Virus record (IMG/VR): IMGVR_UViG_3300000439_000009
Span: 42,854-106,853 of that record
Direction: 5' to 3' (one strand)
Origin: a virus
Taxonomy: Duplodnaviria; Caudoviricetes
DNA: 64,000 nucleotides
Shown one piece after another: positions 1-64,000 of the stretch (the stretch's first letter is position 1; each line of letters opens with the position of its first letter). Position numbers and translations under genes: made by a program. The notes beneath the pieces were generated by a model, which saw only the letters and a list, made by a program, of their open reading frames with translations, was not told the DNA's origin and made no database searches.

Positions 1-35
1 TGTATATACATTATATCAAACTGTTAGAGTTATTG

Positions 36-1088
36 TCAAATAGTTGTGTTATTAGAAGATCTGTTCCCGTACCCCACAGATGGCTTGCCATCATTTTCAT
101 ATGTCGCTCTTGACGGGAAATAGTATCTTGCATCTTGATCCTGTGAATTAAAATCAGGACCCATTTGACCTTTATTAGATGGAACAAATACACCAGACCA
201 AATTGATTCGCCCTTTTCCATCTTATTTTCTCTTTCAACAATTGCACGAGACCATGCAAATCCTGCATCTCCGCCCCATGCGTACCACATAACTTTACCA
301 TGTGAAGGCTTATCCCACTCTTTACCCTGCTTGTCAACTTCATGGCGTGAGAAGAATGAATACATACGCTTTACAGTATCAAGACTTAAAGACTCTCCAT
401 TAACAATTTGACGGGCTCTGCCCCAACCTACGGCTGTACCAGCTCCAGTTGCCTTGCCATCTTCTTTCCATTTAATTGCTTTGTGTGCTGCAGCCTTCAT
501 ACCTGCATTTGGCTTATAGCCAGAATCTGATTTCTTTACTTCTTTAGGAATGCAATCTGGAACAGTTTTACCATTCTTTTCTTTTGTACCCGCATACTCA
601 TAACCATCCCAGCAAGGACCTTGACCCTTGGTCATGCAACTTAAACATTTTTCTTCATCAGAAATATAATGATGATCATTTCCTAAATCATCACATCCGC
701 ATGTCATACATTTATTCACTACGTTATTCTCCTTATATTCCTCTGGAGTTTTAGTTGTCCTAACTTCATCGCTGAGTAGGTCTATTTTGGGGTTATCTAG
801 GCCTTTGAGAGCCTCTTCTGCTTCTGCCCTAGTCAAGTAGCAGCCTATTGATTGACCCGTTCCAGACTTCATTATAGCATATCCATGCTGACAATCTGGA
901 GTATTAAATTCAATTGACCAGCCGTCTCCACCTGTAAATATCATTTTCTTTACATCTGGCACGTTTGTATATAAAGCACCTAATTGTGCCTGGGCCTGGG
1001 CTTTAGACGGATGTGTTCCAACAACCTTACCAGTAGCAGTAACTACTACTTGATACTTGTTACCTTCACGTCTGATATTATATGGCAT
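36..1088 (-). CDS. Modular phage protein, possibly head-associated or protease-processed
   Basis: 350 aa of short modules: two copies of Y-x-V...TG.(V/S)(V/I)G.(H/Y)...A.A...L, a CxxCGC segment, CWDGYEYAGTKEKNGKTVPDC, and a GT.VGW.RARQI...TVKRMYSFFSRHE...WGGDAG..W block that I recall from phage head-region proteins. TATAAT lies 6 nt upstream of the ATG. Confidence 0.55.
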   Translation of the reverse strand: MPYNIRREGNKYQVVVTATGKVVGTHPSKAQAQAQLGALYTNVPDVKKMIFTGGDGWSIEFNTPDCQHGYAIMKSGTGQSIGCYLTRAEAEEALKGLDNPKIDLLSDEVRTTKTPEEYKENNVVNKCMTCGCDDLGNDHHYISDEEKCLSCMTKGQGPCWDGYEYAGTKEKNGKTVPDCIPKEVKKSDSGYKPNAGMKAAAHKAIKWKEDGKATGAGTAVGWGRARQIVNGESLSLDTVKRMYSFFSRHEVDKQGKEWDKPSHGKVMWYAWGGDAGFAWSRAIVERENKMEKGESIWSGVFVPSNKGQMGPDFNSQDQDARYYFPSRATYENDGKPSVGYGNRSSNNTTI

Positions 1089-1109
1089 ATGACAATTATA
1101 CCGTATTTA

Positions 1110-1358
1110 CTATAATCCAGCCAATATTTCATCATCTGGAGTATCTGGGTTATTTTCTGTATAAAGAGCTTTAAGAGTCTTTTTATTTTCTACTCTTTGA
1201 ACAGATTCTCCCATACCTATGACAAACATAATTGTTGGAATAATTATATCTATGGGTATATTAGGAAAGCTTTTATTTAAATAAATAATTAAAGCAGAAA
1301 TATACCCAGATACTCGTGAGGGATGTTTTCTAAGATATTTAGATATTTTATGCAACAT
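1110..1358 (-). CDS. Small membrane protein (holin-like candidate)
   Basis: 82 aa with two hydrophobic stretches; start overlaps the upstream stop codon. Confidence 0.5.
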   Translation of the reverse strand: MLHKISKYLRKHPSRVSGYISALIIYLNKSFPNIPIDIIIPTIMFVIGMGESVQRVENKKTLKALYTENNPDTPDDEILAGL

Positions 1359-1720
1359 TAATCTCCTAATGAAGTTTTATTATCTACTGCTGAAAATGAA
1401 GCATTAATTTCATCTATGGTTAATTTACCATCATCCATAAATCCACGTGCTAAACCTTCAACAACTTTTGCTACACCTAAAGTTCCCGCCATAAAAACAG
1501 CTGTTAAAGTTTTAATTCCAAAAATGGAACCTGCCCCTATGACTGAAAGACCAGTTGCTGCAAATACTGCTAATATTCTCATAATGATATTATTAACACT
1601 TGCTATTACACCACTTCCAACTTGTTGTGGGATATCTGCAGGTGTTAATGGCTTTGCTGCTATCGCTGCTGCTTCGGCTTTAATTTTATTTATTGCATAT
1701 GTTGGTTCTAATTGAGACAT
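1358..1720 (-). CDS. Membrane protein, two TM helices (holin-like candidate)
   Basis: ILAVFAATGLSVIGAGSIFG and AVFMAGTLGVA hydrophobic segments, then DDGKLT.DEIN. Confidence 0.55.
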   Translation of the reverse strand: MSQLEPTYAINKIKAEAAAIAAKPLTPADIPQQVGSGVIASVNNIIMRILAVFAATGLSVIGAGSIFGIKTLTAVFMAGTLGVAKVVEGLARGFMDDGKLTIDEINASFSAVDNKTSLGD

Positions 1721-1724
1721 ATTT

Positions 1725-1907
1725 TTACTCCTTTCCCTTTGGATTTCTTAATCTAAATGTTGCAATCCACAAGAAGATAGAAATAAGAATTGCATCTCCA
1801 ACAACTGTCTTTGCGGATCCCGTCAAAACTAGCCACGCAGAGAATAGACCAACGAAAGTCCAAATCTGATTGGCTAGGTCTGACATTAAACCTTTAATTA
1901 GTTTCAT
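1725..1907 (-). CDS. Small two-TM membrane protein
   Basis: 60 aa, largely hydrophobic; ATGA overlap with the upstream gene. Confidence 0.55.
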   Translation of the reverse strand: MKLIKGLMSDLANQIWTFVGLFSAWLVLTGSAKTVVGDAILISIFLWIATFRLRNPKGKE

Positions 1908-4684
1908 TTGCCGAACCTCCTTCTAAGTGCTGCTATTTGTCCTACGACAAGTGTAGTCACTAAGATTTTTTTAGCTTTCTTTCTTGTTACAGGCGACATA
2001 TCATTGCCAATATTAGCCATTGCAACAAATGCTTGATTGATTGCTTGCACTCCAGGAACTGAAGCAAGTGTACCAGTTATTGGGGTTAATACCACAGGGA
2101 CAGCAACATCTGGAGCATTAAAACTATCTCCCCCTGGTTGACCGATAAATGTATCAGCAGTAGTGATTGCATCTGCAGGAATAGGTAAACCAGATCCTGG
2201 AGGTGGGGCAGGAGGTGTAAGATGACCATCTTCTCCAACAACTTGAGGTGCACTTTGTGTACCAAAGAATTGAATACCGCCATTTTCTACTCCTTTTACA
2301 TCTACTTGAATATGTGGAACTAAAACTTCTGCTGGAGCAGGCTTTGGAATGTCAGTTGGCAGTTGTGCGGGATTGTTTGGAACGACGCCAGTTGATGCCA
2401 CTAACGCTTTGTCTGCTGCTACTTTGTCTGCTGCTACTTTGTCTGCTGCTTGATGTGCAGCTTTATCTGCTTCTGCTTTAGCAGCATCAGCTTTTGCCTG
2501 TGCATCTTTTTGTGCTTGTATAGCAGCATCCTGTGCGGCTTTTGCATCTTTTGCTTGTTGCTCTTTAGCTGCTTGTTCAGCAGCAATTCTATCCGCTTCT
2601 GCTTTTTGTTTATCTGCTTCTGCTTTAGCATTTGCAGATTCTTGTGCAGCTTTTGCTGCCTCATCTTTAGCTTTTTGTTCTGCTAGTGCAGCATCTTGTT
2701 CGGCTTTTGCTTTTGCGTCCGCCTCTGCTTTAGCAGCGTCTGCTGCTGCTTGAGCATCTTTTGCTGCTTGAATTTTTGCGTCTTCTGCTGCTTTGTCTGC
2801 TGCTGCTTGTGCTTCTTTGGCTGCTTGTTCAGCAGCAATACGTGCATCTTCTGCAGCCTTGGCTTCCGCTGCTGCTTTTTCATTTGCTGCTTGCTGTGCA
2901 GTTGCTGCTGCATCTGCTGCAGCTTTATCTGCTGCTGCTTGTTCTGCCAATGCTTGTGCTCTTGCTGCCCTAGCTTCTGCATCTGCTTTTTGTTGTGCAG
3001 CTAATGCTGCGTCAGATGCTGCTTTATCGGCTGCTGCTTGTGCTATTGCAGCTTGACGATCTGTTTCTGCTTTAATTGCTGCTTGTCTTGCAGCCTCTGC
3101 CTCTGCAGCAAGTCTTGCTTGTTCTGCATAATAATCTTGTGTAACAGTAACTGCATTTCCAGTAGCAGTATTTGCATCTTGAACAGCAACAGTTGCAGTA
3201 TCTGCAAGAGAGTTAGCAGTTTGCAATGTAGCATTTGCTGTATTTTGAGCATCTGTTAAATTTTGTTTTTGTATAGACAAATTTTCCTGTGCTGTTGTTA
3301 GATCTCTTTGTGCTAAATTATATGCTTGTTGTGCTGCATCTATAACAGATTGTTGGGCATTTACATCATTAACTGCATCGTGAAGTGCTTGTACTGCTTG
3401 TGCTACTACCTGTGCTTGTGCATCATATGCATTTTGAGCAGAAGTTAAATTAATTTGTGCTGTAGATACTGAAGCGGTCAATGTTGGATTTGGAGCAGAA
3501 GTAGTAGATATTACATGACTAAAATTAGTTGATGTAGGGGATGTAAAATATTGATTATTAATCATATAACCTAAAGTTACTCCAGCACCTCCGCCATTTT
3601 CATAATACCAAAGAATAATATCTTGCGTTGTGCCAGCGGTAATATCAAATGATTGACTATAAGGACTCCAAGCTAATCCTTGATCTCTCCAGTTATTAAT
3701 AACTAAATTACCATCAATATAAAGTTTTGATCCATCGTCTGAGTAAACAGCATATTTAACAACTGTTGCATCTGACGGTAATGTAATCTTGCCTTCAAAT
3801 TTTACAATTACATGATCTGATAATCCAGAATTAAGTATTTGACCACTTCCCCAATTATAAGTAATCTGAGGTACTGTCAGAACCTCTACTGGAGTAGCAT
3901 TTGCAGCGGGGAGTGCAGGAGAGGCACCATTTGCTGCATGATAAACTGTTGCTATAAGTCCTGGTTGAGTAACATCAACAGTTGTTAATGGAGCAGAATT
4001 CAGTGCAGTTTGGGCATTTGTTAAATCAGTTTGGGCATTATTTAGGTCTGTTGATTTTTGATCAAAGGTAGAATTTTCAGCATTTGCTGTAGATTGTGCA
4101 TTTGATGCAGTAGATTGTAAATCTGGCAACTTAGCAGTTTCGGTTGTTAGAATAGTTTGAGCATCAACCGCTTTAACTGTAGCGGTATCTACAGTAGTAA
4201 CGGCTTGCGTTACTATTGCTGTTTGTGTATCCACTGTAGCAATTGCTGTTTGTGCAACCTGTGTTGCAGCTGTAGCAGAATCAATTGTTTGTTGAGCTAT
4301 TTGAATTTTAGTATTTGCTTCAGCAACAGCAGATGCCATGGGTTCTTGTGTAGTAGCTATAGAAATTGCTGTTGAGGTATCTGTATTGGGAACGTTTGCT
4401 TGAATTGTTGAAATTATTGCATTCCCGTTTGCTTCTGAAGTTGTTTGAAGGCTTGAAATGGCTGCATTAATTTTATTTTCTATAACAGCAACTGTAACAG
4501 TTGATGTATCAATAACAGCATTTACTGTTGAAGTATCTGTTATAGCAATTGGAATATCTGAGACGGGTTGGGAAGTATCTGTGGCAACGGGTGCATCATC
4601 GGCATGTGCTTTATTAGACGGGAAAAGAAATAGCAACCCTGTTATAAACAAGGCTGCTATTATAAATTTAATCTTTCTGGTCAT
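1904..4684 (-). CDS. Secreted or membrane-anchored PA14-domain protein with Ala-rich coiled coils
   Basis: Signal peptide ending AHA|DD; PA14-type motifs (ITYNWGSG, VKFEGKI, YSDDGSKLYIDGNLVINNW.DQ, WYYENGGGA); long A/Q/K/E coiled coil; Pro-rich linker; C-terminal basic-hydrophobic-basic anchor. Confidence 0.75.
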   Translation of the reverse strand: MTRKIKFIIAALFITGLLFLFPSNKAHADDAPVATDTSQPVSDIPIAITDTSTVNAVIDTSTVTVAVIENKINAAISSLQTTSEANGNAIISTIQANVPNTDTSTAISIATTQEPMASAVAEANTKIQIAQQTIDSATAATQVAQTAIATVDTQTAIVTQAVTTVDTATVKAVDAQTILTTETAKLPDLQSTASNAQSTANAENSTFDQKSTDLNNAQTDLTNAQTALNSAPLTTVDVTQPGLIATVYHAANGASPALPAANATPVEVLTVPQITYNWGSGQILNSGLSDHVIVKFEGKITLPSDATVVKYAVYSDDGSKLYIDGNLVINNWRDQGLAWSPYSQSFDITAGTTQDIILWYYENGGGAGVTLGYMINNQYFTSPTSTNFSHVISTTSAPNPTLTASVSTAQINLTSAQNAYDAQAQVVAQAVQALHDAVNDVNAQQSVIDAAQQAYNLAQRDLTTAQENLSIQKQNLTDAQNTANATLQTANSLADTATVAVQDANTATGNAVTVTQDYYAEQARLAAEAEAARQAAIKAETDRQAAIAQAAADKAASDAALAAQQKADAEARAARAQALAEQAAADKAAADAAATAQQAANEKAAAEAKAAEDARIAAEQAAKEAQAAADKAAEDAKIQAAKDAQAAADAAKAEADAKAKAEQDAALAEQKAKDEAAKAAQESANAKAEADKQKAEADRIAAEQAAKEQQAKDAKAAQDAAIQAQKDAQAKADAAKAEADKAAHQAADKVAADKVAADKALVASTGVVPNNPAQLPTDIPKPAPAEVLVPHIQVDVKGVENGGIQFFGTQSAPQVVGEDGHLTPPAPPPGSGLPIPADAITTADTFIGQPGGDSFNAPDVAVPVVLTPITGTLASVPGVQAINQAFVAMANIGNDMSPVTRKKAKKILVTTLVVGQIAALRRRFGK

Positions 4685-9721: not shown

Positions 9722-10248
9722 ATAGCTTCATTTACTGCCCACCAAGCAATACCCACTGAGTCTGTAACGTTATTGTTATCAGTATTAACTCCTAGAGTTT
9801 TAGCAAACTCAATAGTTTTTTGCTTCCTTAGTTCTCTAACTTTGTTTTTATACCAAGATTCTGTTTTTCCTGGAAAATCTTTCTTGACTGATTCTTTTTC
9901 AGCTTTTGTAAAATTAGGATTGTTGATGTAGCCCTGCCACTTAAGTGGGTGGACTTCAATAACTGTTGTATCATCGTCCATCAACTCCCCCATTATTGTA
10001 CCAAACATGTAAGCCATCTTTAGTCCAGTAGCCACAGACTTAACAGAAACTGCAGCCTCTATACATATTATATCATAATCTAACTTACTTTTTAATGCTC
10101 TGACTTTGCGTTTAGCATCTAAGATTCTTTCATAAACACTAGATCCATGAAAAACAATCTCTCCCCATTTAACTGGCTTCTTTCCTGACATTAAGCAGAA
10201 AGCTATGCTATTTGTGCTTGAGTCTATACCTAGAACTCTACTTTCCAT
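9718..10248 (-). CDS. ruvC: RuvC-like Holliday junction resolvase
   Basis: VLGIDSST, ICIEA, V.P..W and TDSVGIA acidic motifs of the RNase H fold. Confidence 0.8.
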   Translation of the reverse strand: MESRVLGIDSSTNSIAFCLMSGKKPVKWGEIVFHGSSVYERILDAKRKVRALKSKLDYDIICIEAAVSVKSVATGLKMAYMFGTIMGELMDDDTTVIEVHPLKWQGYINNPNFTKAEKESVKKDFPGKTESWYKNKVRELRKQKTIEFAKTLGVNTDNNNVTDSVGIAWWAVNEAI

Positions 10249-22678: not shown

Positions 22679-22855
22679 TTATTGCGCAGTAATGTTTTTT
22701 AAACTATCGCTATAGTTCTGAATGGCGTTTTCTTTTTCTTGATCCATTAACATTGTAAGTTCTGCTCTTAACATGGCAATTTGAACTTCATAATTAGATG
22801 TTAATTCGCCTATACGTTGTTGTAGGGCGGTAATAATTAATTCCGCTTTTTCCAT
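22679..22855 (-). CDS. Small coiled-coil protein (58 aa; not in the ORF track)
   Basis: Hand translation MEKAELIITALQQRIGELTSNYEVQIAMLRAELTMLMDQEKENAIQNYSDSLKNITAQ*. Confidence 0.7.
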   Translation of the reverse strand: MEKAELIITALQQRIGELTSNYEVQIAMLRAELTMLMDQEKENAIQNYSDSLKNITAQ

Positions 22856-22870
22856 TATGTTCCGTTTCTA

Positions 22871-23104
22871 TTAGTTAGAAGGTGTGGCTGCTTGGAGTGT
22901 TGCTAGTTCTGCCTCTAATGCTGTTTTCTTGGCAGATAAATCATTAAGCTGTAAGTTTAAAGCATCAATTGCTGATTGGTCTGGCATAGCAACTGCTTGA
23001 TTTTCTTTAATGCTTAATCCAATGTTGTACTGACTGTAAATCAAATTTCTTAGATGTTGATCTACTACTTGAATTTTTTCTGCATTTGTAAGTTCTATTG
23101 TCAT
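22871..23104 (-). CDS. Small coiled-coil protein
   Basis: 77 aa; AAGGAGG RBS and TGATATAAT upstream. Confidence 0.7.
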   Translation of the reverse strand: MTIELTNAEKIQVVDQHLRNLIYSQYNIGLSIKENQAVAMPDQSAIDALNLQLNDLSAKKTALEAELATLQAATPSN

Positions 23105-23141: not shown

Positions 23142-23399
23142 TTACCATTTGCCAATTGGGCAGGATGCATGTTTTATTTTAGATTTTACGGGCATAAAAC
23201 AACCACATTTTTTGCATTGATTTGTTATATTCATTAGCTCTGGGCAAGTTTTACATATATCATATCTTAAATCAGACTCTTCTTTAGATAGCCATTCTGT
23301 ACTAGGATTTAATACATCCCAAGGTTTTGCTGTTTTAGGCTTATCCAAAGATCCCGTTTTTTTATATATATCCCAAGGAGTTAATTCTTCTTCAGTCAT
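23142..23399 (-). CDS. Small Cys-rich protein (DUF6171-like), paralog of 62903..63142
   Basis: PW..L.P...R..IC..CP.L...T.QC..CGCFM..K.....CP..KW. Confidence 0.75.
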   Translation of the reverse strand: MTEEELTPWDIYKKTGSLDKPKTAKPWDVLNPSTEWLSKEESDLRYDICKTCPELMNITNQCKKCGCFMPVKSKIKHASCPIGKW

Positions 23400-23667
23400 T
23401 ATCTGGTATCTCTACTACTTCAAATGTCGGATTACTTCTAAAGGCTGCAACAAAAGGTAAAGACTCTTCTCCAAGTAAAATTTCTGCTTTAACATCACTA
23501 TCTACTATAAAATTAAACAAATATCCATTTGAAGATTCTAGTTCTGTGACTGTGGGATTTAATGAACAAGCTTGTTTAAATTTTTGCCAATAATCTGTAG
23601 CATTTTCCATTATTGTAAATGTCCCAACTGGATCTTCTTTAACATAAACTTTTACCATAGTTTTCAT
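23392..23667 (-). CDS. Small protein downstream of the PPFF fibre (possible assembly factor)
   Basis: 91 aa with an internal repeat (ACSLNPTVTEL / AAFRSNPTFEVVEI). Confidence 0.6.
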   Translation of the reverse strand: MKTMVKVYVKEDPVGTFTIMENATDYWQKFKQACSLNPTVTELESSNGYLFNFIVDSDVKAEILLGEESLPFVAAFRSNPTFEVVEIPDND

Positions 23668-23689
23668 TTTAACATCTTATCATAAAACA

Positions 23690-26600
23690 TTATTGTGAAC
23701 AAGTTCCTGGTACTGTACTTGTAGTTGAAGATGGGGAACATGGACCACAACCATTAAGATCAGAATAATAAGTAACTGTTTGACATTTTGCATTTACGCC
23801 GCTTCCAATTGTAGTTTGAGATACGGTACTTACTTGACAATTTGGTACACATGATGGAGCAAAGTATGGCGGGAAGAACGGTGGGAAGAATGGGAAGAAT
23901 GGTGGGAAGAATGGTGGGAAGAATGGTGGGAAGAATGGTGGGAAGAATGGTGATGGCGCAACTGTGCAAGCACCATTTGCTGCTGCAGCAAGTGCATCAT
24001 TTGAAGTTAATCTATAAACAGTTTTTGTTACAGTTCTTAATCCAGTAACAGTTGTATCCGTTGGAAGAGAGGATCCAGTAGTTGGACCAGACACTGAAGG
24101 TGCCTGATTATAAGTACCGAGCTGAATATCACAAATAGAGCTTCCAGTGTAGTATGTTACTACTGGAGCAAAGTATGGTGGGAAGAATGGTGGGAAGAAT
24201 GGTGGGAAGAATGGTGGGAAGAACGGTGGGAAGAACGGTGGGAAAAATGGTGGCGCAACGGTGCAATTTGCATTTGCTGCTGCAGATAACGCATCTGCAG
24301 ATGTCGCTCTATAAACAGTTTTGGTTATTCTTCCTGAATTATTAGCTGTAGTATCAGAAGGCATTGAATTAGCAGTATATGGTCCAGTTACATAGGGAGT
24401 AGTAATATAATAATTATTATTCAAATCACATAACGAAGTTCCAATATAATAGGTAACTGCGGTAATATATGAACTAAATACAGCACCGCTATTAGCAGTT
24501 CCGCCTGGACCAGTTGCTACGGAATAACCATATAATTGATAGCCGATATCAGCAGATGTAATTGTATATAAAGTTGTTGTAGCATTTGTACTGCTTGCAA
24601 GAAGTGTATTATTTGCGTCTGCTCTTCTAATGTATGTTGTATAATTTGTTGTATTTGTAAATGTTCCTACATCATATATAGCACTTTGACCTGGAACTGT
24701 ACCGCCATAAAACGAGCCACGTGTTGCAGTAGGTGCGGGAGCAACTGTACAAAGAGAATTAGCTGCTGCTGATAAAGCAGCGTCTGAAGTTAATCTGTAT
24801 ACAGTTTTTGTTATTGATTGAGATCCTGTAAATTGCGTATCTGTTGGGAGCGAAGATCCTGTAAAAGGTCCAGTTACATAGGGAGCATAAATATAATAAT
24901 TGTTTTGAGTACTACAATTTGAAGTTCCAACATAATAAGTAACTGTTCCATTACCTGTTACGGATGCAGAACCATTAGTATAACCTACCCTAGAAGTACT
25001 AACTGTTACTGTTGCACTCTGACCATTACTTAATCCAGAAACGGTAAATGTATTATTTCCAGTAACACTTGATGGACTCAATGTTCCTGCACTTGTATTA
25101 ATTGACCAGGAATAATTTGCATCATAATTGCTAAGAGAAAATGTAAAACCATCTGAAGTTTGTGTAGGAGATGAAAGTGAAGGGGTTAAGCCAGGTATTG
25201 AACAGATAGAATTCGTAGCAGCGGATAAAGCTTCTTGTGCACTAAATCTATATACAGTTTTTACATAATTTCCATTAAAAACTTGAACATTTGTATCTGC
25301 AGGAACTTTATCGTAAAGTGGTCCAGTTACTGAAGGTAATTTTGCATACGATCCATTAAGTGGATTACATTCTGAAGTTCCAGTATAATATGGATGATTT
25401 ACTAATTCTCCACCGCCATAAGTTTGAACAATTTGATATTCTGGCTTTACAGATTGACTAGAATTACTATTGCTGGCATATGTTGTAAAATATATATTTT
25501 GAGCATATATAGAATTTATTGTTATTGTATTTCCTTCGTAAACCAGTATATCTTGTGGCATAGACTTATATAATACATTATTAAATGTGCCAGTTCCTGA
25601 AGCTAAACCACTAATAGTATAGCTAACAACCCAACTATCTGTATGATCAGATGCATCTACACTTAATGTAACTTTATTTGGATCTTTACTATGAGTTGAT
25701 AGGTAGAGATTTTCAGTTCCAGATGAAGTAAATGTGATAGGACTTGAAACAACTTCAGAATTATTTTGTTGAGAGGCCCAGGTGTAGGGCGAAGTAGTAC
25801 CATAAACAACTCCATCGTAATGGGCAAACCAAAAACCTACATTAGTAGAAGATGATTGCTTACTCCATTTAATTTGAAATGTATTATTACCCAAATCAAC
25901 TAAAGATACATAGGGATTTTGATCTGGTATTTGCGTGGTATCGGTTATATAATAATTAAATGGATCTGGTGCAAAAACAGCTGTACCAGTTACATTTGCT
26001 GAATTTGAACTATACCCATTTGCACTAACAGTTATTTTAAAAGTGGCACTACTTCCTGGTGACATATTGCTAACATAAAAAGCCCAAGAATGAGAAGATG
26101 AAATTGGTACAGTTTGCCAATTAAAAATTGGAGGGGTGGGTAATGTAGAGGTATGGCTTATTAATTCTGCTGTATATGTATATCCAGAATTATAATTATT
26201 CACTGTTCCTTGAAAACCATCACCATGATCATGATTTCCGTCGCTATATCCACTTTGAACATTAGCAAATGTAGGCGCAGGTAATGGTGCGTTCACTACT
26301 TGATATAAATTAGAAAAGAAATCGTAATACTTTAAATCATTTCCTTGAACAAGATCTCTTACTATAAAATAATCTTGTGCGCCAGCTTCGTCAGCAGAAA
26401 CGGTATGCGTTGATGATGAATCATAACCCTCGTACCCTCCAGATTGCCCTCCAAGATAAGAATATGGATAAATATCTTGTGCGCCTGATGAAGTTTTTGC
26501 CCATTGAAAAACAGTTACAACAGAGCCTTTGTTATCTTTATACGTTCCTGGTGTAGAATAAAGAATGTCACCAGCTGTTATTCCGCTTGTTTTTATAACA

Positions 26601-27661
26601 CCTGTTGGGGATTTTGCAACTAATGTCGGGGGCGTTAATTGGGTAACTCCTGTAGAAATTTTTTGTGAAGATACTGCTACTGCTGAGGTGCCAACTCCAG
26701 CATTAAAAAATTTTGATCCTCCATTAGAAGCTGTTTCTACACAATATATATATTTACCTACTTCTGCACTTGTTATTGGCTGAGATACCGTGGTGCTTGA
26801 TAAAGGGTTTCCATTTTGAGTTAATTGACTTAAAGTTGTATAAGAATTTACAGCAGCACTAAACCACTGATATGTATATGTTTTTGGCATGTAGCCATCT
26901 GTCATCTGCCATAAAGATGAATAAGATAAAATGGATCCACTTCCATACCCATTAGATGAACTGATCTGTTTAGATATATTTACTGGCGGGTTAGTAACAA
27001 CATAAATTCTTGCAGAACCTTCATCACTTGAATCTTCTCCGTATATATAATGAATTCCATCTGTATCTTTTGTTGTGGTATTTGCTTGAACTGTAAATGA
27101 AACATATAAATCATCATATGTAAAATCTAATAATATTTGAGGAACTTGTGTAGAAGTTTTATCATTAGATAAAATTGGATCAGTTGAATTTGTATTTGAT
27201 ATAGTTAATGGAGAACTTGTATATGTTGAACTATTTAATGTTACCCCGCCCAGACTGGTGGTTGGGTCAGTAAATCCGTTTACATACCAATCAAAATTAC
27301 TTATTGTATATCCGTTAGGGTCCCAGTCCCCCACATATCCAAGTAATTTATTTTGAACATAAACGTTTCCAGTTCCTGCGGGAGCACTTGGATTTGGCAT
27401 AGTTCCTATAACTATCCAAGCTGGTATGTGTTTTTGTGCATCTAAAAAATACGGGTAATTATCTGCATATGGGACGGTAGTCGGAAAAAATCTTCTCCAT
27501 CCGCCTACTCCAGCAATAGTTTTTACATAAATAACCTTTACATCTTTCCAAACAGCGGTTGCAGTTTTTACGGAAACAGTTTTTATTTTATTCCATACGC
27601 TAGATGGGGATGCATTTGGATCACTTGGGTCGCTTCCGCTAGTCTTTACGTATAATGGCAT
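23690..27661 (-). CDS. Minor tail/fibre protein with Ig-like domains, four two-Cys repeats, (PPFF)n tracts and a Cys-rich tip
   Basis: Last large gene of the tail module; S/T/G/Y-rich; Ig-like motifs (YTYQW...AEVGKYIYC.ETASN; YTITSADIGYQL); PPFF tracts. Confidence 0.75.
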   Translation of the reverse strand: MPLYVKTSGSDPSDPNASPSSVWNKIKTVSVKTATAVWKDVKVIYVKTIAGVGGWRRFFPTTVPYADNYPYFLDAQKHIPAWIVIGTMPNPSAPAGTGNVYVQNKLLGYVGDWDPNGYTISNFDWYVNGFTDPTTSLGGVTLNSSTYTSSPLTISNTNSTDPILSNDKTSTQVPQILLDFTYDDLYVSFTVQANTTTKDTDGIHYIYGEDSSDEGSARIYVVTNPPVNISKQISSSNGYGSGSILSYSSLWQMTDGYMPKTYTYQWFSAAVNSYTTLSQLTQNGNPLSSTTVSQPITSAEVGKYIYCVETASNGGSKFFNAGVGTSAVAVSSQKISTGVTQLTPPTLVAKSPTGVIKTSGITAGDILYSTPGTYKDNKGSVVTVFQWAKTSSGAQDIYPYSYLGGQSGGYEGYDSSSTHTVSADEAGAQDYFIVRDLVQGNDLKYYDFFSNLYQVVNAPLPAPTFANVQSGYSDGNHDHGDGFQGTVNNYNSGYTYTAELISHTSTLPTPPIFNWQTVPISSSHSWAFYVSNMSPGSSATFKITVSANGYSSNSANVTGTAVFAPDPFNYYITDTTQIPDQNPYVSLVDLGNNTFQIKWSKQSSSTNVGFWFAHYDGVVYGTTSPYTWASQQNNSEVVSSPITFTSSGTENLYLSTHSKDPNKVTLSVDASDHTDSWVVSYTISGLASGTGTFNNVLYKSMPQDILVYEGNTITINSIYAQNIYFTTYASNSNSSQSVKPEYQIVQTYGGGELVNHPYYTGTSECNPLNGSYAKLPSVTGPLYDKVPADTNVQVFNGNYVKTVYRFSAQEALSAATNSICSIPGLTPSLSSPTQTSDGFTFSLSNYDANYSWSINTSAGTLSPSSVTGNNTFTVSGLSNGQSATVTVSTSRVGYTNGSASVTGNGTVTYYVGTSNCSTQNNYYIYAPYVTGPFTGSSLPTDTQFTGSQSITKTVYRLTSDAALSAAANSLCTVAPAPTATRGSFYGGTVPGQSAIYDVGTFTNTTNYTTYIRRADANNTLLASSTNATTTLYTITSADIGYQLYGYSVATGPGGTANSGAVFSSYITAVTYYIGTSLCDLNNNYYITTPYVTGPYTANSMPSDTTANNSGRITKTVYRATSADALSAAANANCTVAPPFFPPFFPPFFPPFFPPFFPPFFPPYFAPVVTYYTGSSICDIQLGTYNQAPSVSGPTTGSSLPTDTTVTGLRTVTKTVYRLTSNDALAAAANGACTVAPSPFFPPFFPPFFPPFFPPFFPFFPPFFPPYFAPSCVPNCQVSTVSQTTIGSGVNAKCQTVTYYSDLNGCGPCSPSSTTSTVPGTCSQ
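23861..23956. repeat. 12-bp tandem repeat (gggaagaatggt)n encoding PPFF
   Basis: Seen directly; near-identical units. Confidence 0.95.
24170..24253. repeat. 12-bp tandem repeat encoding PPFF
   Basis: Seen directly; same unit as 23861-23956. Confidence 0.95.
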
Positions 27662-53735: not shown

Positions 53736-54065
53736 TTAAATAATCCCCATTTTTTTCTTTTGCTCTAAATCTTCTTTTAGAGCTGGGATGTCCCATTCGT
53801 CTGCAACTAATCCCCAGTCCATTCTTTGCTTTTGATTATCATACTCTTCGGCAGAAACTGGGCGGTGTCCAGAAAACCATACTGGCTCTCCATCTTCAAC
53901 GCCATAAGACTTGGCAAAATTTCTAAGTTCTGTAATCTTTTTTACATCACCTTTAATTGCATAAATACACATAAAATTACCATCTTCATCAGATACTAAT
54001 TTGCCGTCTGGCATCTGCCAGAGGTAGGTTCCATAATTAACTTCTTCAACAGGTGTAATTTTCAT
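53736..54065 (-). CDS. Conserved phage protein upstream of the portal
   Basis: 109 aa, abuts the portal ATG; TGGTAAAAT upstream. Confidence 0.65.
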   Translation of the reverse strand: MKITPVEEVNYGTYLWQMPDGKLVSDEDGNFMCIYAIKGDVKKITELRNFAKSYGVEDGEPVWFSGHRPVSAEEYDNQKQRMDWGLVADEWDIPALKEDLEQKKKMGII

Positions 54066-54117
54066 ATGAGTCTATTTTACCACTTTCTTTATCTGTAGCG
54101 AATATTGTGTACTGAAA

Positions 54118-62170: not shown

Positions 62171-62878
62171 TTAATGACTTAATGTATTTATATCGGTCAT
62201 AACAACAACACAATACTTTGTGCCAGATTTTATAGGCAAAGAAGCATGTTCATAAATATAATTTGATGGGAAAATAGCAATATCCCCTACTTTTGGAGTA
62301 TGTACAAAATTATCTAATCTTGGAAACTTAATTTCCCCGCCTTCATAATCATCATTAATATAAATAACTGCAGAAACAGTACAATTATAAGCTGGGCCAT
62401 GATCAGCATGAATATTAAAATGAGTACCTTCACCTTCATATTTTACAAAATTAAAAGCTTCATAATATACAACATTAATGCCCCAATAATGAGCATAATC
62501 ATCTATACAAGTTTTTAATTTTTGATATATTTCTTCATGCAAATCAATTAAATCAGAATTAAATTCATCTCTCGGACCAAGATTTTCTTGTTTATATTTA
62601 AAATCTACACAATCTCTTGCTTTTTTAATTGGGGAAGTTGAATTTGTAACTTGCGCTTCGGACCATGTATATTTTTTATTACTTGATAAATTTAATTCAA
62701 GAGTATCAATATATCTTTTTGAGTCTTCTAAAGAAAAAACATTATGATAAATATTTAAACCTAAACCAGGATTACTAATTAAAATATCATTATTAATTAA
62801 TCGTGACACTCTGTTTGAGGCTGTTTCTGATCTATCTTTAGTAAACCAAGGGTTTTCATTTTCATCATAAACATTCAT
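62171..62878 (-). CDS. 2OG-Fe(II) oxygenase, P4H-like (#1)
   Basis: HADHG; YINDDYEGGEI.FP; FPSNYIYEH...P..SGTKY; close paralog of 60703..61380. Confidence 0.9.
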   Translation of the reverse strand: MNVYDENENPWFTKDRSETASNRVSRLINNDILISNPGLGLNIYHNVFSLEDSKRYIDTLELNLSSNKKYTWSEAQVTNSTSPIKKARDCVDFKYKQENLGPRDEFNSDLIDLHEEIYQKLKTCIDDYAHYWGINVVYYEAFNFVKYEGEGTHFNIHADHGPAYNCTVSAVIYINDDYEGGEIKFPRLDNFVHTPKVGDIAIFPSNYIYEHASLPIKSGTKYCVVVMTDINTLSH

Positions 62879-62902: not shown

Positions 62903-63142
62903 TTACTCGGACTTTCCCCATTTATTTAATGGGCATTCTGCATTTGAAAGATGAACTTTAGCAGACATGAAACATCCGCATTCTAAACATTGTTTTGTTA
63001 TTGAAACTAATCTTGGACATGAAATGCATATTTCTAATCTATTTTTTGCAATTTCTGAATCTTTTACTATTTTGTTTGGATCTAAAAGATGCCAAGGACG
63101 TGAATCTCCAACATTTTTTTTCCAATCATTCCACTTTGACAT
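62903..63142 (-). CDS. Small Cys-rich protein (DUF6171-like), paralog of 23142..23399
   Basis: RPW.LLDP...RL.IC.SCP.L...T.QC.ECGCFM..K......CP..KW. Confidence 0.75.
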   Translation of the reverse strand: MSKWNDWKKNVGDSRPWHLLDPNKIVKDSEIAKNRLEICISCPRLVSITKQCLECGCFMSAKVHLSNAECPLNKWGKSE

Positions 63143-63154
63143 ATTAACCTTTTT

Positions 63155-63610
63155 TTAATCTTTTGGCAAACTAAAACTTGATCCATCCCAAATATAACCT
63201 AAACCAAATAATTTTACATCAGATGCATCTATAACTAAAACTTTATTTGAAAAAGCAGCTTCAAATTTTTCAATATCATTATGTTTTGTTACTCTACCAA
63301 AAATTTTATTTTTTGATAAAAATGCAAGACTTAATGAATTTTCTTCATGACCCCATATATCAAATACATCGTGACCGACAACTCTTTCTTTATTGTCTGG
63401 AAGATTAAATTTTTGTCCGTCCCAAAAAGAATCAAATGTAAGATTATCTAAACCAGTTACATTCATTGCAATTGCATTTTGATTAGATGTACCAGATTTC
63501 CATCTTTTTGAAATTTCTGAATCAGATTCAAATATTATAATTTCAAAAACTTCAAATAAATTAGAATTTTCTTCTATTTCAGTAGCAAGTGCATATTTAT
63601 CAAATTTCAT
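63155..63610 (-). CDS. Small protein downstream of the PPFF gene (possible fibre assembly factor)
   Basis: 151 aa with an internal duplication (FWDGQKFNLP / IWDGSSFSLP). Confidence 0.65.
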   Translation of the reverse strand: MKFDKYALATEIEENSNLFEVFEIIIFESDSEISKRWKSGTSNQNAIAMNVTGLDNLTFDSFWDGQKFNLPDNKERVVGHDVFDIWGHEENSLSLAFLSKNKIFGRVTKHNDIEKFEAAFSNKVLVIDASDVKLFGLGYIWDGSSFSLPKD

Positions 63611-63687: not shown

Positions 63688-64000
63688 TCAAACAACACAT
63701 CCTCCACAACTGCAATAAGCTGGTCTTAGGCATCTAACTCCACTGCATGAAGCGCAGAAAGATGGTGGGAAGGATGGCGGGAAAAACGGTGGGAAGAATG
63801 GTGCAGCAAAGTATGGTGGGAAGAATGGTGGTGGGAAATATGGTGGGAAAAACGGGAAGTACGGGAAATATGGTGGGAAGAACGGCGGGAAGAATGGGAA
63901 ATATGGCGGGAAGAATGGTGGGAAGAACGGCGGGAAGAATGGTGGGAAGAACGGGAAGTATGGGAAGAATGGTGGGAAGAATGGTGGGAAGAATGGGAAG
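63688..64000 (-). CDS. 3' end of a (PPFF/PPYF)n protein with Cys-rich tip (partial; not in the ORF track)
   Basis: Hand translation ends ...FPPYFAAPFFPPFFPPSFPPSFCASCSGVRCLRPAYCSCGGCVV* (TGA at 63688-63690); runs off the window edge. Confidence 0.85.
   Translation of the reverse strand, partial: FPFFPPFFPPFFPYFPFFPPFFPPFFPPFFPPYFPFFPPFFPPYFPYFPFFPPYFPPPFFPPYFAAPFFPPFFPPSFPPSFCASCSGVRCLRPAYCSCGGCVV
63758..64000. repeat. 9/12-bp tandem repeat array encoding PPFF/PYF/PPYF
   Basis: Same gggaagaatggt unit as the arrays at 23.9 and 24.2 kb, interspersed with 9-bp variants. Confidence 0.95.

Follow-up and report, generated by a model that had tools for sequence, protein, structure and literature searches.

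Two copies of a three-gene cassette at fibre ends

The last 64 kb (hereafter the window, the whole 64,000-nucleotide stretch that was analysed) of the viral record IMGVR_UViG_3300000439_000009 (Duplodnaviria; Caudoviricetes; 106,853 bases, CheckV completeness estimate 99%) carry two copies of a cassette in which two new families of small proteins, a middle protein and a DUF6171-like protein, accompany a hypervariable, Cys-rich knob at the end of a fibre as a three-part unit. All cassette genes of both copies lie on the minus strand, and the six open reading frames (ORFs) of a preliminary description, made from the sequence alone, were recovered at the positions given here. In cassette 1, fibre protein 1 (23690..27661, 1323 aa) contains four ~60-residue two-Cys repeats and two FFPP runs (24176..24247 and 23867..23947, minus strand), the second of which is the linker preceding a C-terminal tip with six Cys (23693..23860, residues 1268-1323). 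It is followed by middle gene 1 (W1; 23392..23667, 91 aa), with two units of an ‘AAxxSNP ... GWxWDG’ family, and by DUF6171-like protein 1 (23142..23399, 85 aa), whose start overlaps the end of the middle gene by 8 nt. Cassette 2 consists of the C-terminal FFPP repeat and 7-Cys tip of protein 2 (63688..64000), middle gene 2 (W2; 63155..63610, 151 aa, two units, family shared with middle gene 1) and DUF6171-like protein 2 (62903..63142, 79 aa). Exactly two DUF6171-like copies are present in the whole record.

The four repeats of fibre 1 (residues ~760-1235, window 23957-25384) contain paired cysteines exactly 55 residues apart (765/820, 916/971, 1078/1133 and 1177/1232) and share the end ‘VYR.TS..AL.AAAN..C’, with an FFPP run after each of the last two; the tip cysteines lie within residues 1271-1321. 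The repeats gave no family match, and fibre 1 matched no functionally characterised family in Pfam or PHROG. The tail of protein 2 likewise consists of FFPP-type repeats, with 7 Cys within its final 22 residues. The two Cys tips are unrelated in sequence, as had been suggested (no alignment at E <= 100). The ORF of protein 2 is truncated by the record end, which is also the window end and falls inside the FFPP repeat, so that its N-terminus is lost, and the record start falls inside a fibre gene of at least 1289 aa (record 1-3868) rich in ‘SYTD.AISTEVTNRNSAI’ repeats. A single gene spanning the circular junction (ORF 1-3868 plus the FFPP tail) was rejected, as the frames do not join. Since, in addition, the tip protein of FFPP-type relatives is a separate gene (280-337 aa), preceded by a gene resembling the N-terminus of the 1-3868 ORF, an assembly gap within the repeat is probably the likelier explanation of the record ends.

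Tips across related loci (cited below by L numbers) show highly diverse Cys patterns on TP, VTPA, PxP, poly-T, GGS or FFPP linkers. The preliminary description regarded PPFF as the fibre type of the cassette, which did not hold, FFPP being a minority and one among several linker types. Some fibre ends without a Cys knob (L009, L036, L049, L050, L051) carry a Hint/intein-like C-terminal motif, which in L050 and L051 gave weak matches to Pfam Intein_splicing, below cut-off (E 1.2e-6 and 0.0024); a self-processing, Hint-like fibre end would offer another option besides the Cys knob. At the other extremity, a PASTA domain starts five of the eight fibre proteins scanned (L003:7518-8753, L007:7179-8744, L009, L049, L051). 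This PASTA region is the conserved N-terminal fibre part and is retained when the distal end is swapped. A diversity-generating retroelement was considered as well and dropped, no reverse transcriptase having been seen in the annotated neighbourhoods.

Two families of small proteins behind the tip

The third genes of the two cassettes are paralogues, as first proposed (BLASTP 29/80 identical, 36%, E 2e-19). Both match phrog_13558 (copy 1 E 1.6e-14, profile positions 20-68 of 69; copy 2 E 2.1e-16, 19-68 of 69), and copy 1 passes the cut-off of 27 bits for Pfam DUF6171 (PF19668) with 29.6 bits, whereas copy 2 remains below it (24.7 bits). They differ from the Pfam family in that the match is restricted to the C-terminal half (32/41-80 of the 80 model positions) and in that the phage subfamily has an N-terminal P-W-D/H motif of its own; most of its sequences end in CPIGKW. 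In an alignment of 33 relatives, six cysteines (C49, C52, C62, C65, C67 and C80 in copy 1) are invariant and two CxxC knuckles (C49-x2-C52 and C62-x2-C65) are conserved throughout, a pattern from which the domain probably binds metal. A profile search of 1.84 billion representatives returned 8002 family members at E <= 1e-3, while the phage subfamily appears in the cellular genome collection on only three small contigs of metagenome-assembled genomes.

The AlphaFold2 (AF2) model of DUF6171-like protein 1 (predicted local distance difference test, pLDDT, 80.8) consists of short helices and strands. Neither Foldseek against the PDB (best E 7.6) nor VIA-align against 48,161 chains (best Z 2.2) found a solved analogue, and a thioredoxin-like fold was not recovered in these searches. 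There was also no NCBIfam match for ten window proteins, and no similarity of the middle or the DUF6171-like protein to described fibre chaperone families in Pfam, NCBIfam or annotated PHROG.

The kinship of the two middle genes is far less obvious. Pairwise BLASTP between W1 and W2 found nothing (E 11), and a direct profile-profile comparison of their families with hhalign, based on small alignments, failed as well (E 0.47). A hidden Markov model (HMM) of the middle family, trained on 12 single-unit proteins from other loci only and run on 6259 ORFs, did match, as the only ORFs of this genome, W1 (E 6.6e-6, in two stretches) and W2 (E 0.0059). After two iterations the matches reached 4e-16 for W1, with units at residues 7-45 and 51-90, and 3.6e-13 for W2, with units at residues 20-68 and 108-146, in agreement with the internal duplication originally read from each gene. 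The same single-unit family aligned by hhalign to the W1 alignment with 90.1% probability (E 1.6e-6) and to the W2 alignment with 92.2% (E 5.8e-7). Thus, the profile-profile comparison that had been proposed for the two genes succeeded by way of the single-unit family but not directly, and because BLASTP and the direct comparison fail, the relationship is visible only through that family.

Further members place W1 and W2 in the same group. Of 53 unique small proteins located between a fibre and a DUF6171-like gene in related loci, phmmer links 46, W1 and W2 among them, into a single group; W1 is closest to the middle genes from L039 and L043 (phmmer 4e-13), and W2 matches phrog_14370 (E 4.7e-4). 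Database searches for close relatives of W1 and W2 returned two and three proteins, respectively, and no further viral locus. For the single unit, AF2 gives a confident model (pLDDT 88.1) made up of a beta-hairpin, one helix and a short pair of strands; the unit has no solved fold analogue (VIA best Z 2.2), and its look-alikes in BFVD are uncharacterised phage proteins only. The middle genes are therefore related, as members of a common, divergent family of 45-60-residue units with a confidently predicted unit fold.

Recurrence of the cassette in other viruses

A pattern scan of viral contigs yielded ~600 loci with a DUF6171-like relative, 80 of which were kept for analysis. They contain 83 DUF6171-like genes, 73 of them unique, which divide into 66 of subfamily A (the kind found in the window) and seven of subfamily B. 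For 55 of the 66 subfamily-A genes at least 1.2 kb of upstream sequence was available. An ORF with at least four Cys in its last 60 residues precedes 48 of these 55, a middle-family gene precedes 40, and both precede 38; among the other called genes that reach 150 aa or more, such a C-terminus occurs in only 8 of 695 (Fisher p 1.5e-59). The seven tip-less cases comprise the five genes behind Hint/intein-like fibres, one locus where the tip reads through into the middle gene (L020) and one where the DUF6171-like gene follows an oxygenase (L029). Seen from the middle family, a DUF6171-like domain lies at most 400 nt downstream of 57 out of 58 ORFs. A second sample of 80 loci, selected by the middle gene at closer alignment, contained 57 unique middle ORFs: the domain was directly downstream in 48, directly upstream (swapped order) in four and non-adjacent in five, and a true Cys tip stood upstream in at most 41 of the 48.

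The cassette is thus real, non-random and widespread. A distribution of DUF6171-like genes without regard to Cys-tipped genes, or middle genes without a common fold, would have spoken against it; neither was found, given the strong enrichment of DUF6171-like genes behind Cys-tipped ORFs and the family and predicted fold that the middle genes share. The literature searched, supplements excluded, held no description of the cassette, and the term DUF6171 was absent from it.

The seven unique subfamily-B genes lie apart from fibres, on the opposite strand. They (L003:802-1038, L007:2871-3107, L041, L051, L068, L078, L082) begin with F.DLF[DN]PNQPRSD, are divergent from a gene for a small membrane-like protein and one for a phrog_1084 protein, and adjoin oxygenase-like genes. 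As the DUF6171-like protein occurs both there and behind Hint-like fibres that have no Cys tip, the idea that it is dedicated to the Cys tip had to be given up.

The swapped segment ends at the DUF6171-like gene

The three parts of the cassette evolve very differently. Across 52 unique cassettes, median pairwise identity is 64% in the DUF6171-like core, 17% in the C-terminal 60 residues of the fibre and 15% in the middle protein. Tip and middle change together: tip identity is at least 0.4 in 31 of the 39 pairs whose middle identity is at least 0.4, compared to 44 of 996 other pairs. The loci L003 and L007 show where exchange stops. Their DNA is 95% identical across the genes upstream and on into the fibre gene for ~335 nt, a stretch that encodes the PASTA N-terminus; the fibre ends and middle genes are unrelated, and similarity returns exactly at the DUF6171-like start codon (88% over 4 kb). 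From these boundaries, the swappable unit is the distal fibre together with the middle gene, while the DUF6171-like gene is part of the conserved frame. The preliminary description had proposed an exchangeable receptor-binding unit in which every tip travels with dedicated partners. This is borne out for tip and middle gene, which co-vary and were swapped jointly in L003/L007, but not for the DUF6171-like gene, which is conserved and lies outside the swapped segment.

In many other locus pairs the DUF6171-like gene forms an island of 70-80% DNA similarity amid dissimilar flanks; these pairs had been chosen for their unlike tips and middles, which leaves the sharpness of the island edges as the only informative feature. 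Such islands could mean that the DNA serves mainly as a homology arm for fibre-end swaps, or that the gene encodes a zinc-ribbon regulator or nucleic-acid binder whose position behind fibres is incidental. The Lys-rich core, the label ‘predicted Zn-ribbon and HTH (helix-turn-helix) transcriptional regulator’ that one source gives to a homologue, and the location of distant homologues in Stenotrophomonas phage Moby among small early-type hypothetical genes agree with this. We nevertheless consider it quite unlikely, because the genome holds two copies, each straight after a tip and middle pair, start and stop codons are tight or overlapping with those of the middle gene, and the domain is fused to enzymes and, in both orders, to middle units.

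Tailoring enzymes adjacent to and fused with the DUF6171-like domain

The minus strand of this genome reads, in order, FFPP/Cys tail, middle gene 2, DUF6171-like gene 2 and an array of 2-oxoglutarate (2OG)-Fe(II) oxygenases with DUF6065 and a short-chain dehydrogenase/reductase (SDR), then portal, protease, capsid, tail tube, tape measure and three large proteins, and finally fibre 1, middle gene 1, DUF6171-like gene 1, two small genes and a metallophosphoesterase. The array starts behind cassette 2 with a prolyl-4-hydroxylase-type oxygenase (62171..62878, minus strand) and reaches ~55694. Pfam 2OG-FeII_Oxy_3 matched 8 of the 28 window proteins scanned, seven of them above cut-off, and a local HMM recognised 11 oxygenase ORFs in this genome; there was no match to the N-acetylglucosamine (GlcNAc)-transferase family PF11397. 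The two small genes behind cassette 1 encode coiled-coil-like proteins of 77 aa (22871-23104) and 58 aa (22679-22855, a phrog_10610 match), and both are found again in the same position, behind the DUF6171-like gene, in L081, L006 and L064.

The downstream survey covered 131 unique proteins and 63 evaluable loci, using local profiles made from the matches. Directly after the DUF6171-like gene we found a PF13640 oxygenase in 27 loci, a PF11397 GlcNAc-transferase in seven, and a radical-SAM/SPASM enzyme, a GT61 and a cupin in one each; at least one such enzyme lies within five downstream genes in 42 of the 63 loci. Five records whose cassette has no enzyme next to it were searched as a whole, and four of them, including both that are at least 90% complete, encode an oxygenase or GlcNAc-transferase elsewhere. 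PF13640 and PF11397 occur together in related loci, e.g. L009 and L023. In a tally of 46 cassettes, enzyme type tracks linker composition: poly-T linkers (n=7) come with GlcNAc-transferases in six cases and oxygenases in none, Pro-rich linkers (n=12) with oxygenases in ten and GlcNAc-transferases in five, and FFPP linkers (n=6) with oxygenases in four, two or more oxygenases in three and DUF6065 in three, while 13 of the 21 cassettes with another or no linker have no enzyme.

A ~190-aa family (phrog_2954) with an invariant HxD...H.R pattern is closely associated with these genes, 25 of its 26 ORFs lying 0-3 genes downstream of a DUF6171-like gene, including beside subfamily B. The PHROG label ‘ferrochelatase’ was rejected, since the pattern is typical of 2OG oxygenases, and the family (L051:9829-10404, L042:3135-3725, L003:199-798) probably consists of mislabelled 2OG-Fe(II) oxygenases. 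One subfamily-B gene (L068) adjoins an Asp/Asn hydroxylase of PF05118 (E 6e-12).

Radical-SAM/SPASM enzymes were seen directly behind Cys-tip cassettes (L123:2482-5644, L014, L017, L034); in L123 the enzyme comes straight after the middle gene and is followed by a GlcNAc-transferase and an epimerase. In L021 (542-1345) a sulfotransferase-like protein occupies the middle-gene slot, with an APS (adenosine 5'-phosphosulfate)-kinase gene downstream.

Natural fusions were surveyed among the best 150 of the 8002 family members, 15 of which exceed 140 aa. The DUF6171-like domain precedes a GlcNAc-transferase in the 402-aa protein of locus L080 and follows one in P0221, and in P0215 it precedes Sulfotransfer_2 (21.9 bits, cut-off 22). 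A middle unit stands before the domain in P0164 and P0258 (123 aa) and behind it, after a linker, in P0171. A ~110-residue N-terminal domain (phrog_1084 in P0254) precedes the DUF6171-like domain in nine of the best 150, and a phrog_1084-family protein was also found among tail genes. Moreover, an Atlas cluster of 52 viral GlcNAc proteins of 395 aa aligns structurally to DUF6171-like residues 22-85. Because the fusions involve the middle unit in both orders as well as two enzyme classes, the DUF6171-like domain, the middle unit and both enzyme classes appear, at the level of protein architecture, to be functionally linked. The glycosyltransferase and sulfotransferase fusions point to a link with tailoring enzymes rather than to the folding, metal-loading or disulfide role proposed earlier, and together with the L021 arrangement the P0215 fusion hints at sulfation of fibre ends.

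With so many oxygenases around, the DUF6171-like protein might also be an iron or redox helper whose rubredoxin-like Cys4 site loads or reduces the Fe(II) of 2OG or cupin hydroxylases. Three oxygenase families adjoin it (PF13640, the HxD...H.R family and PF05118), and stop and start codons often overlap. Glycosyl- and sulfotransferases, to which the domain is fused, have no need of iron, though, a GlcNAc-transferase alone follows in 7 of the 63 loci, and cassette 1 of the window has no adjacent enzyme; presumably the knuckle spacing CxxC-x9-CxxC also differs from that of rubredoxin. On balance such a helper seems unlikely.

Homologues in cultured phages and predicted contacts

Distant homologues were found by tblastn in 77 phage records, including 35 of Synechococcus, 16 of Stenotrophomonas, nine of Rhizobium and cyanophage P-SS2. 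P-SS2 has two. One is an unannotated ORF of ~60 aa (L087 ~9940-10120, i.e. P-SS2 record ~53,940-54,100) between the gp076 tail protein gene and the gp077 tape measure gene; the slot ahead of the tape measure gene is the usual place of siphophage tail assembly chaperones. The other is the C-terminus of ORF 085 (186 aa). According to Table 2 of the P-SS2 virion proteome (PMC2784084), ORF 085 yielded 0 peptides, while all of the listed ORFs 077-084 and 086-093 were detected.

That table bears directly on the possibility that the DUF6171-like protein is a structural cap, remaining on the finished fibre tip in the virion. The gene does sit within tail modules, and the ~110-residue leading domain of nine of the best 150 representatives has a family member among tail genes. 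The missing ORF 085 peptides, with the listed neighbours all present, and the strong conservation of the protein beside hypervariable tips make a cap very unlikely.

In Synechococcus phage S-IOM18 the homologue (L088:4643-5297) lies six genes downstream of a tail-fibre gene and overlaps the end of a gene for a 137-aa thioredoxin-like ‘SCPQC’ protein (Thioredoxin_2 E 0.0014, weak and below cut-off), an overlap that favours a thiol-redox role. It fits the proposal that the DUF6171-like protein is a generic folding factor for Cys-rich knobs, which templates metal or catalyses or guards disulfides, and that the enzymes nearby are a separate matter. The association with Cys-rich C-termini (48/55 versus 8/695), the six invariant Cys with two CxxC pairs and the lack of ORF 085 from the P-SS2 virion in the table cited above are all compatible with this, as is the persistence of the cassette without linker and enzymes in the L015, L030, L056, L072, L077 and L081 types. 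A folding factor would not be expected, however, behind Hint/intein-like fibres that lack a Cys tip or, as in subfamily B, without any fibre; fusions to GlcNAc-transferase and sulfotransferase are equally unforeseen, and no thioredoxin-like fold was recovered. We therefore regard it as a serious but doubtful contender.

The preliminary description had further called for a multimer prediction of tip and partners. In a three-chain prediction, the knob (fibre 1 residues 1250-1323) and middle 1 were combined with the DUF6171-like protein as partner. The score was 0.49 (runs 0.51, 0.49 and 0.00), and the best of three controls, one of which had the middle protein replaced, scored 0.00; contact agreement between the runs was at least 26% and partner pLDDT at least 51. 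This is a weak pass of a mark that 116 of 157 solved complexes attain, as do 2 of 215 mismatched pairs, with the limit that scores up to 0.60 include only 18 of the 157 solved complexes but both of the mismatches that passed. In view of the fusions, the prediction gives a small push in favour of a contact between the DUF6171-like and middle proteins.

A possible maturation module for fibre ends

Gene order, conservation, co-variation, fusions, the exchange boundary and the absence of a homologue from one virion proteome together suggest a fibre-end maturation module, to which we assign a probability of roughly 0.4: a knob that is hypervariable, a partner specific to it and a generic, putatively metal-binding adaptor outside the virion that would work with tailoring enzymes. 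The cassette would comprise the distal end of a host-recognition fibre plus its maturation helpers, the fibre terminating in a low-complexity linker (FFPP here) and a small, hypervariable Cys-rich knob. Because it evolves fast and changes together with the knob, the middle protein would most likely be specific to it, e.g. as an assembly chaperone or recognition handle. The DUF6171-like protein may be a generic adaptor outside the virion that docks on the middle protein or the tip and couples them to the hydroxylases, GlcNAc-transferases, sulfotransferases and radical-SAM enzymes encoded adjacent to it or fused with it. In this scheme the binding, the metal content and the identity of the modified residues are extrapolated, and the chemistry is putative.

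Several observations weigh against this maturation module. For 21 of the 63 cassettes, cassette 1 of the window among them, the five genes downstream include no recognised enzyme; the tip and middle gene of L123 have no adjacent DUF6171-like gene, and subfamily B stands apart from fibres. The evidence for absence from the virion comes from a homologue that is only ~30% identical and from a small protein, which may escape mass spectrometry. To these come the thioredoxin-like neighbour in S-IOM18, the early-type surroundings of the Moby homologues and the complex run that scored 0.00. Lastly, as solved structures offer no analogue, the DUF6171-like fold gives no functional hint.

The nearest known arrangement is that of a fibre gene followed by an assembly chaperone or adhesin gene, as in lambda stf-tfa, Mu S-U and T4 gp37-gp38/gp57A. 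As there, small genes come straight after the fibre gene and the first of them co-varies and swaps with the tip; at least one homologue of the second helper is missing from virions, as far as the P-SS2 table reports. The middle gene, adjacent to and co-varying with the tip, behaves as a chaperone gene would, whereas the DUF6171-like gene, though adjacent, shows no such co-variation. Unlike these systems, the cassette has two helpers, one hypervariable and one conserved, no similarity to named chaperone families was found, its tips take the form of Cys-rich mini-domains carried by low-complexity linkers, and tailoring enzymes follow. Membership is thus unsupported by sequence or fold.

A second parallel concerns the recognition elements of ribosomally synthesised and post-translationally modified peptides (RiPPs), PqqD-like domains that present the substrate to tailoring enzymes and are either free-standing or fused. 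The DUF6171-like domain is comparable in behaviour only, as a small conserved domain, free or fused to several enzyme classes, with a Cys-rich substrate adjacent and radical-SAM/SPASM enzymes in some loci. It differs in having no match to a solved fold (best Z 2.2; no PqqD-like fold figures among the VIA matches at Z >= 2 from 48,161 chains), six invariant Cys and, as substrate, the end of a large virion protein, so that membership is not claimed. By this analogy we tentatively entertain, as possible rather than probable, a widespread phage system for the chemical tailoring of the fibre end by hydroxylation, glycosylation, sulfation or cross-linking, with the DUF6171-like domain as its common docking module. 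The further step, no firmer than the first, is that the six-Cys adaptor might read the knob and its private partner and recruit the linker-matched enzyme set in a RiPP-like logic.

As to the enzymes themselves, mycobacteriophages reportedly glycosylate their virion proteins by phage-encoded means, with capsid and tail tube as targets. Here, too, the phage carries enzymes that would decorate its own virion proteins, but the fibre end would be the target, and hydroxylases and helper proteins, which are not part of that account, would be involved. The chlorovirus prolyl 4-hydroxylase is another system for comparison. The joint occurrence of PF13640 and PF11397 behind Pro- or Thr-rich linkers in related loci recalls the prolyl-hydroxylase/Gnt1 pair acting on protist Skp1, as outlined in PMC3515798. 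In contrast to that pathway, the genome analysed here has PF13640 without a PF11397 match, the substrate is putative, and nothing in the protist system is known to correspond to the DUF6171-like or the middle protein.

Phage host range is set at the fibre tip, and the analysis locates the end of the part that can be swapped. It ties this unit to tailoring enzymes and thus bears on the targets of phage prolyl-hydroxylase-like enzymes, as well as on the maturation of Cys-rich tips in a reducing cytoplasm. The DUF6171-like family, with its 8002 representative clusters, is nearly absent from cellular genomes. If its domain were indeed a docking module, the many orphan phage genes annotated as ‘2OG-Fe(II) oxygenase’ would gain both a substrate and a handle.

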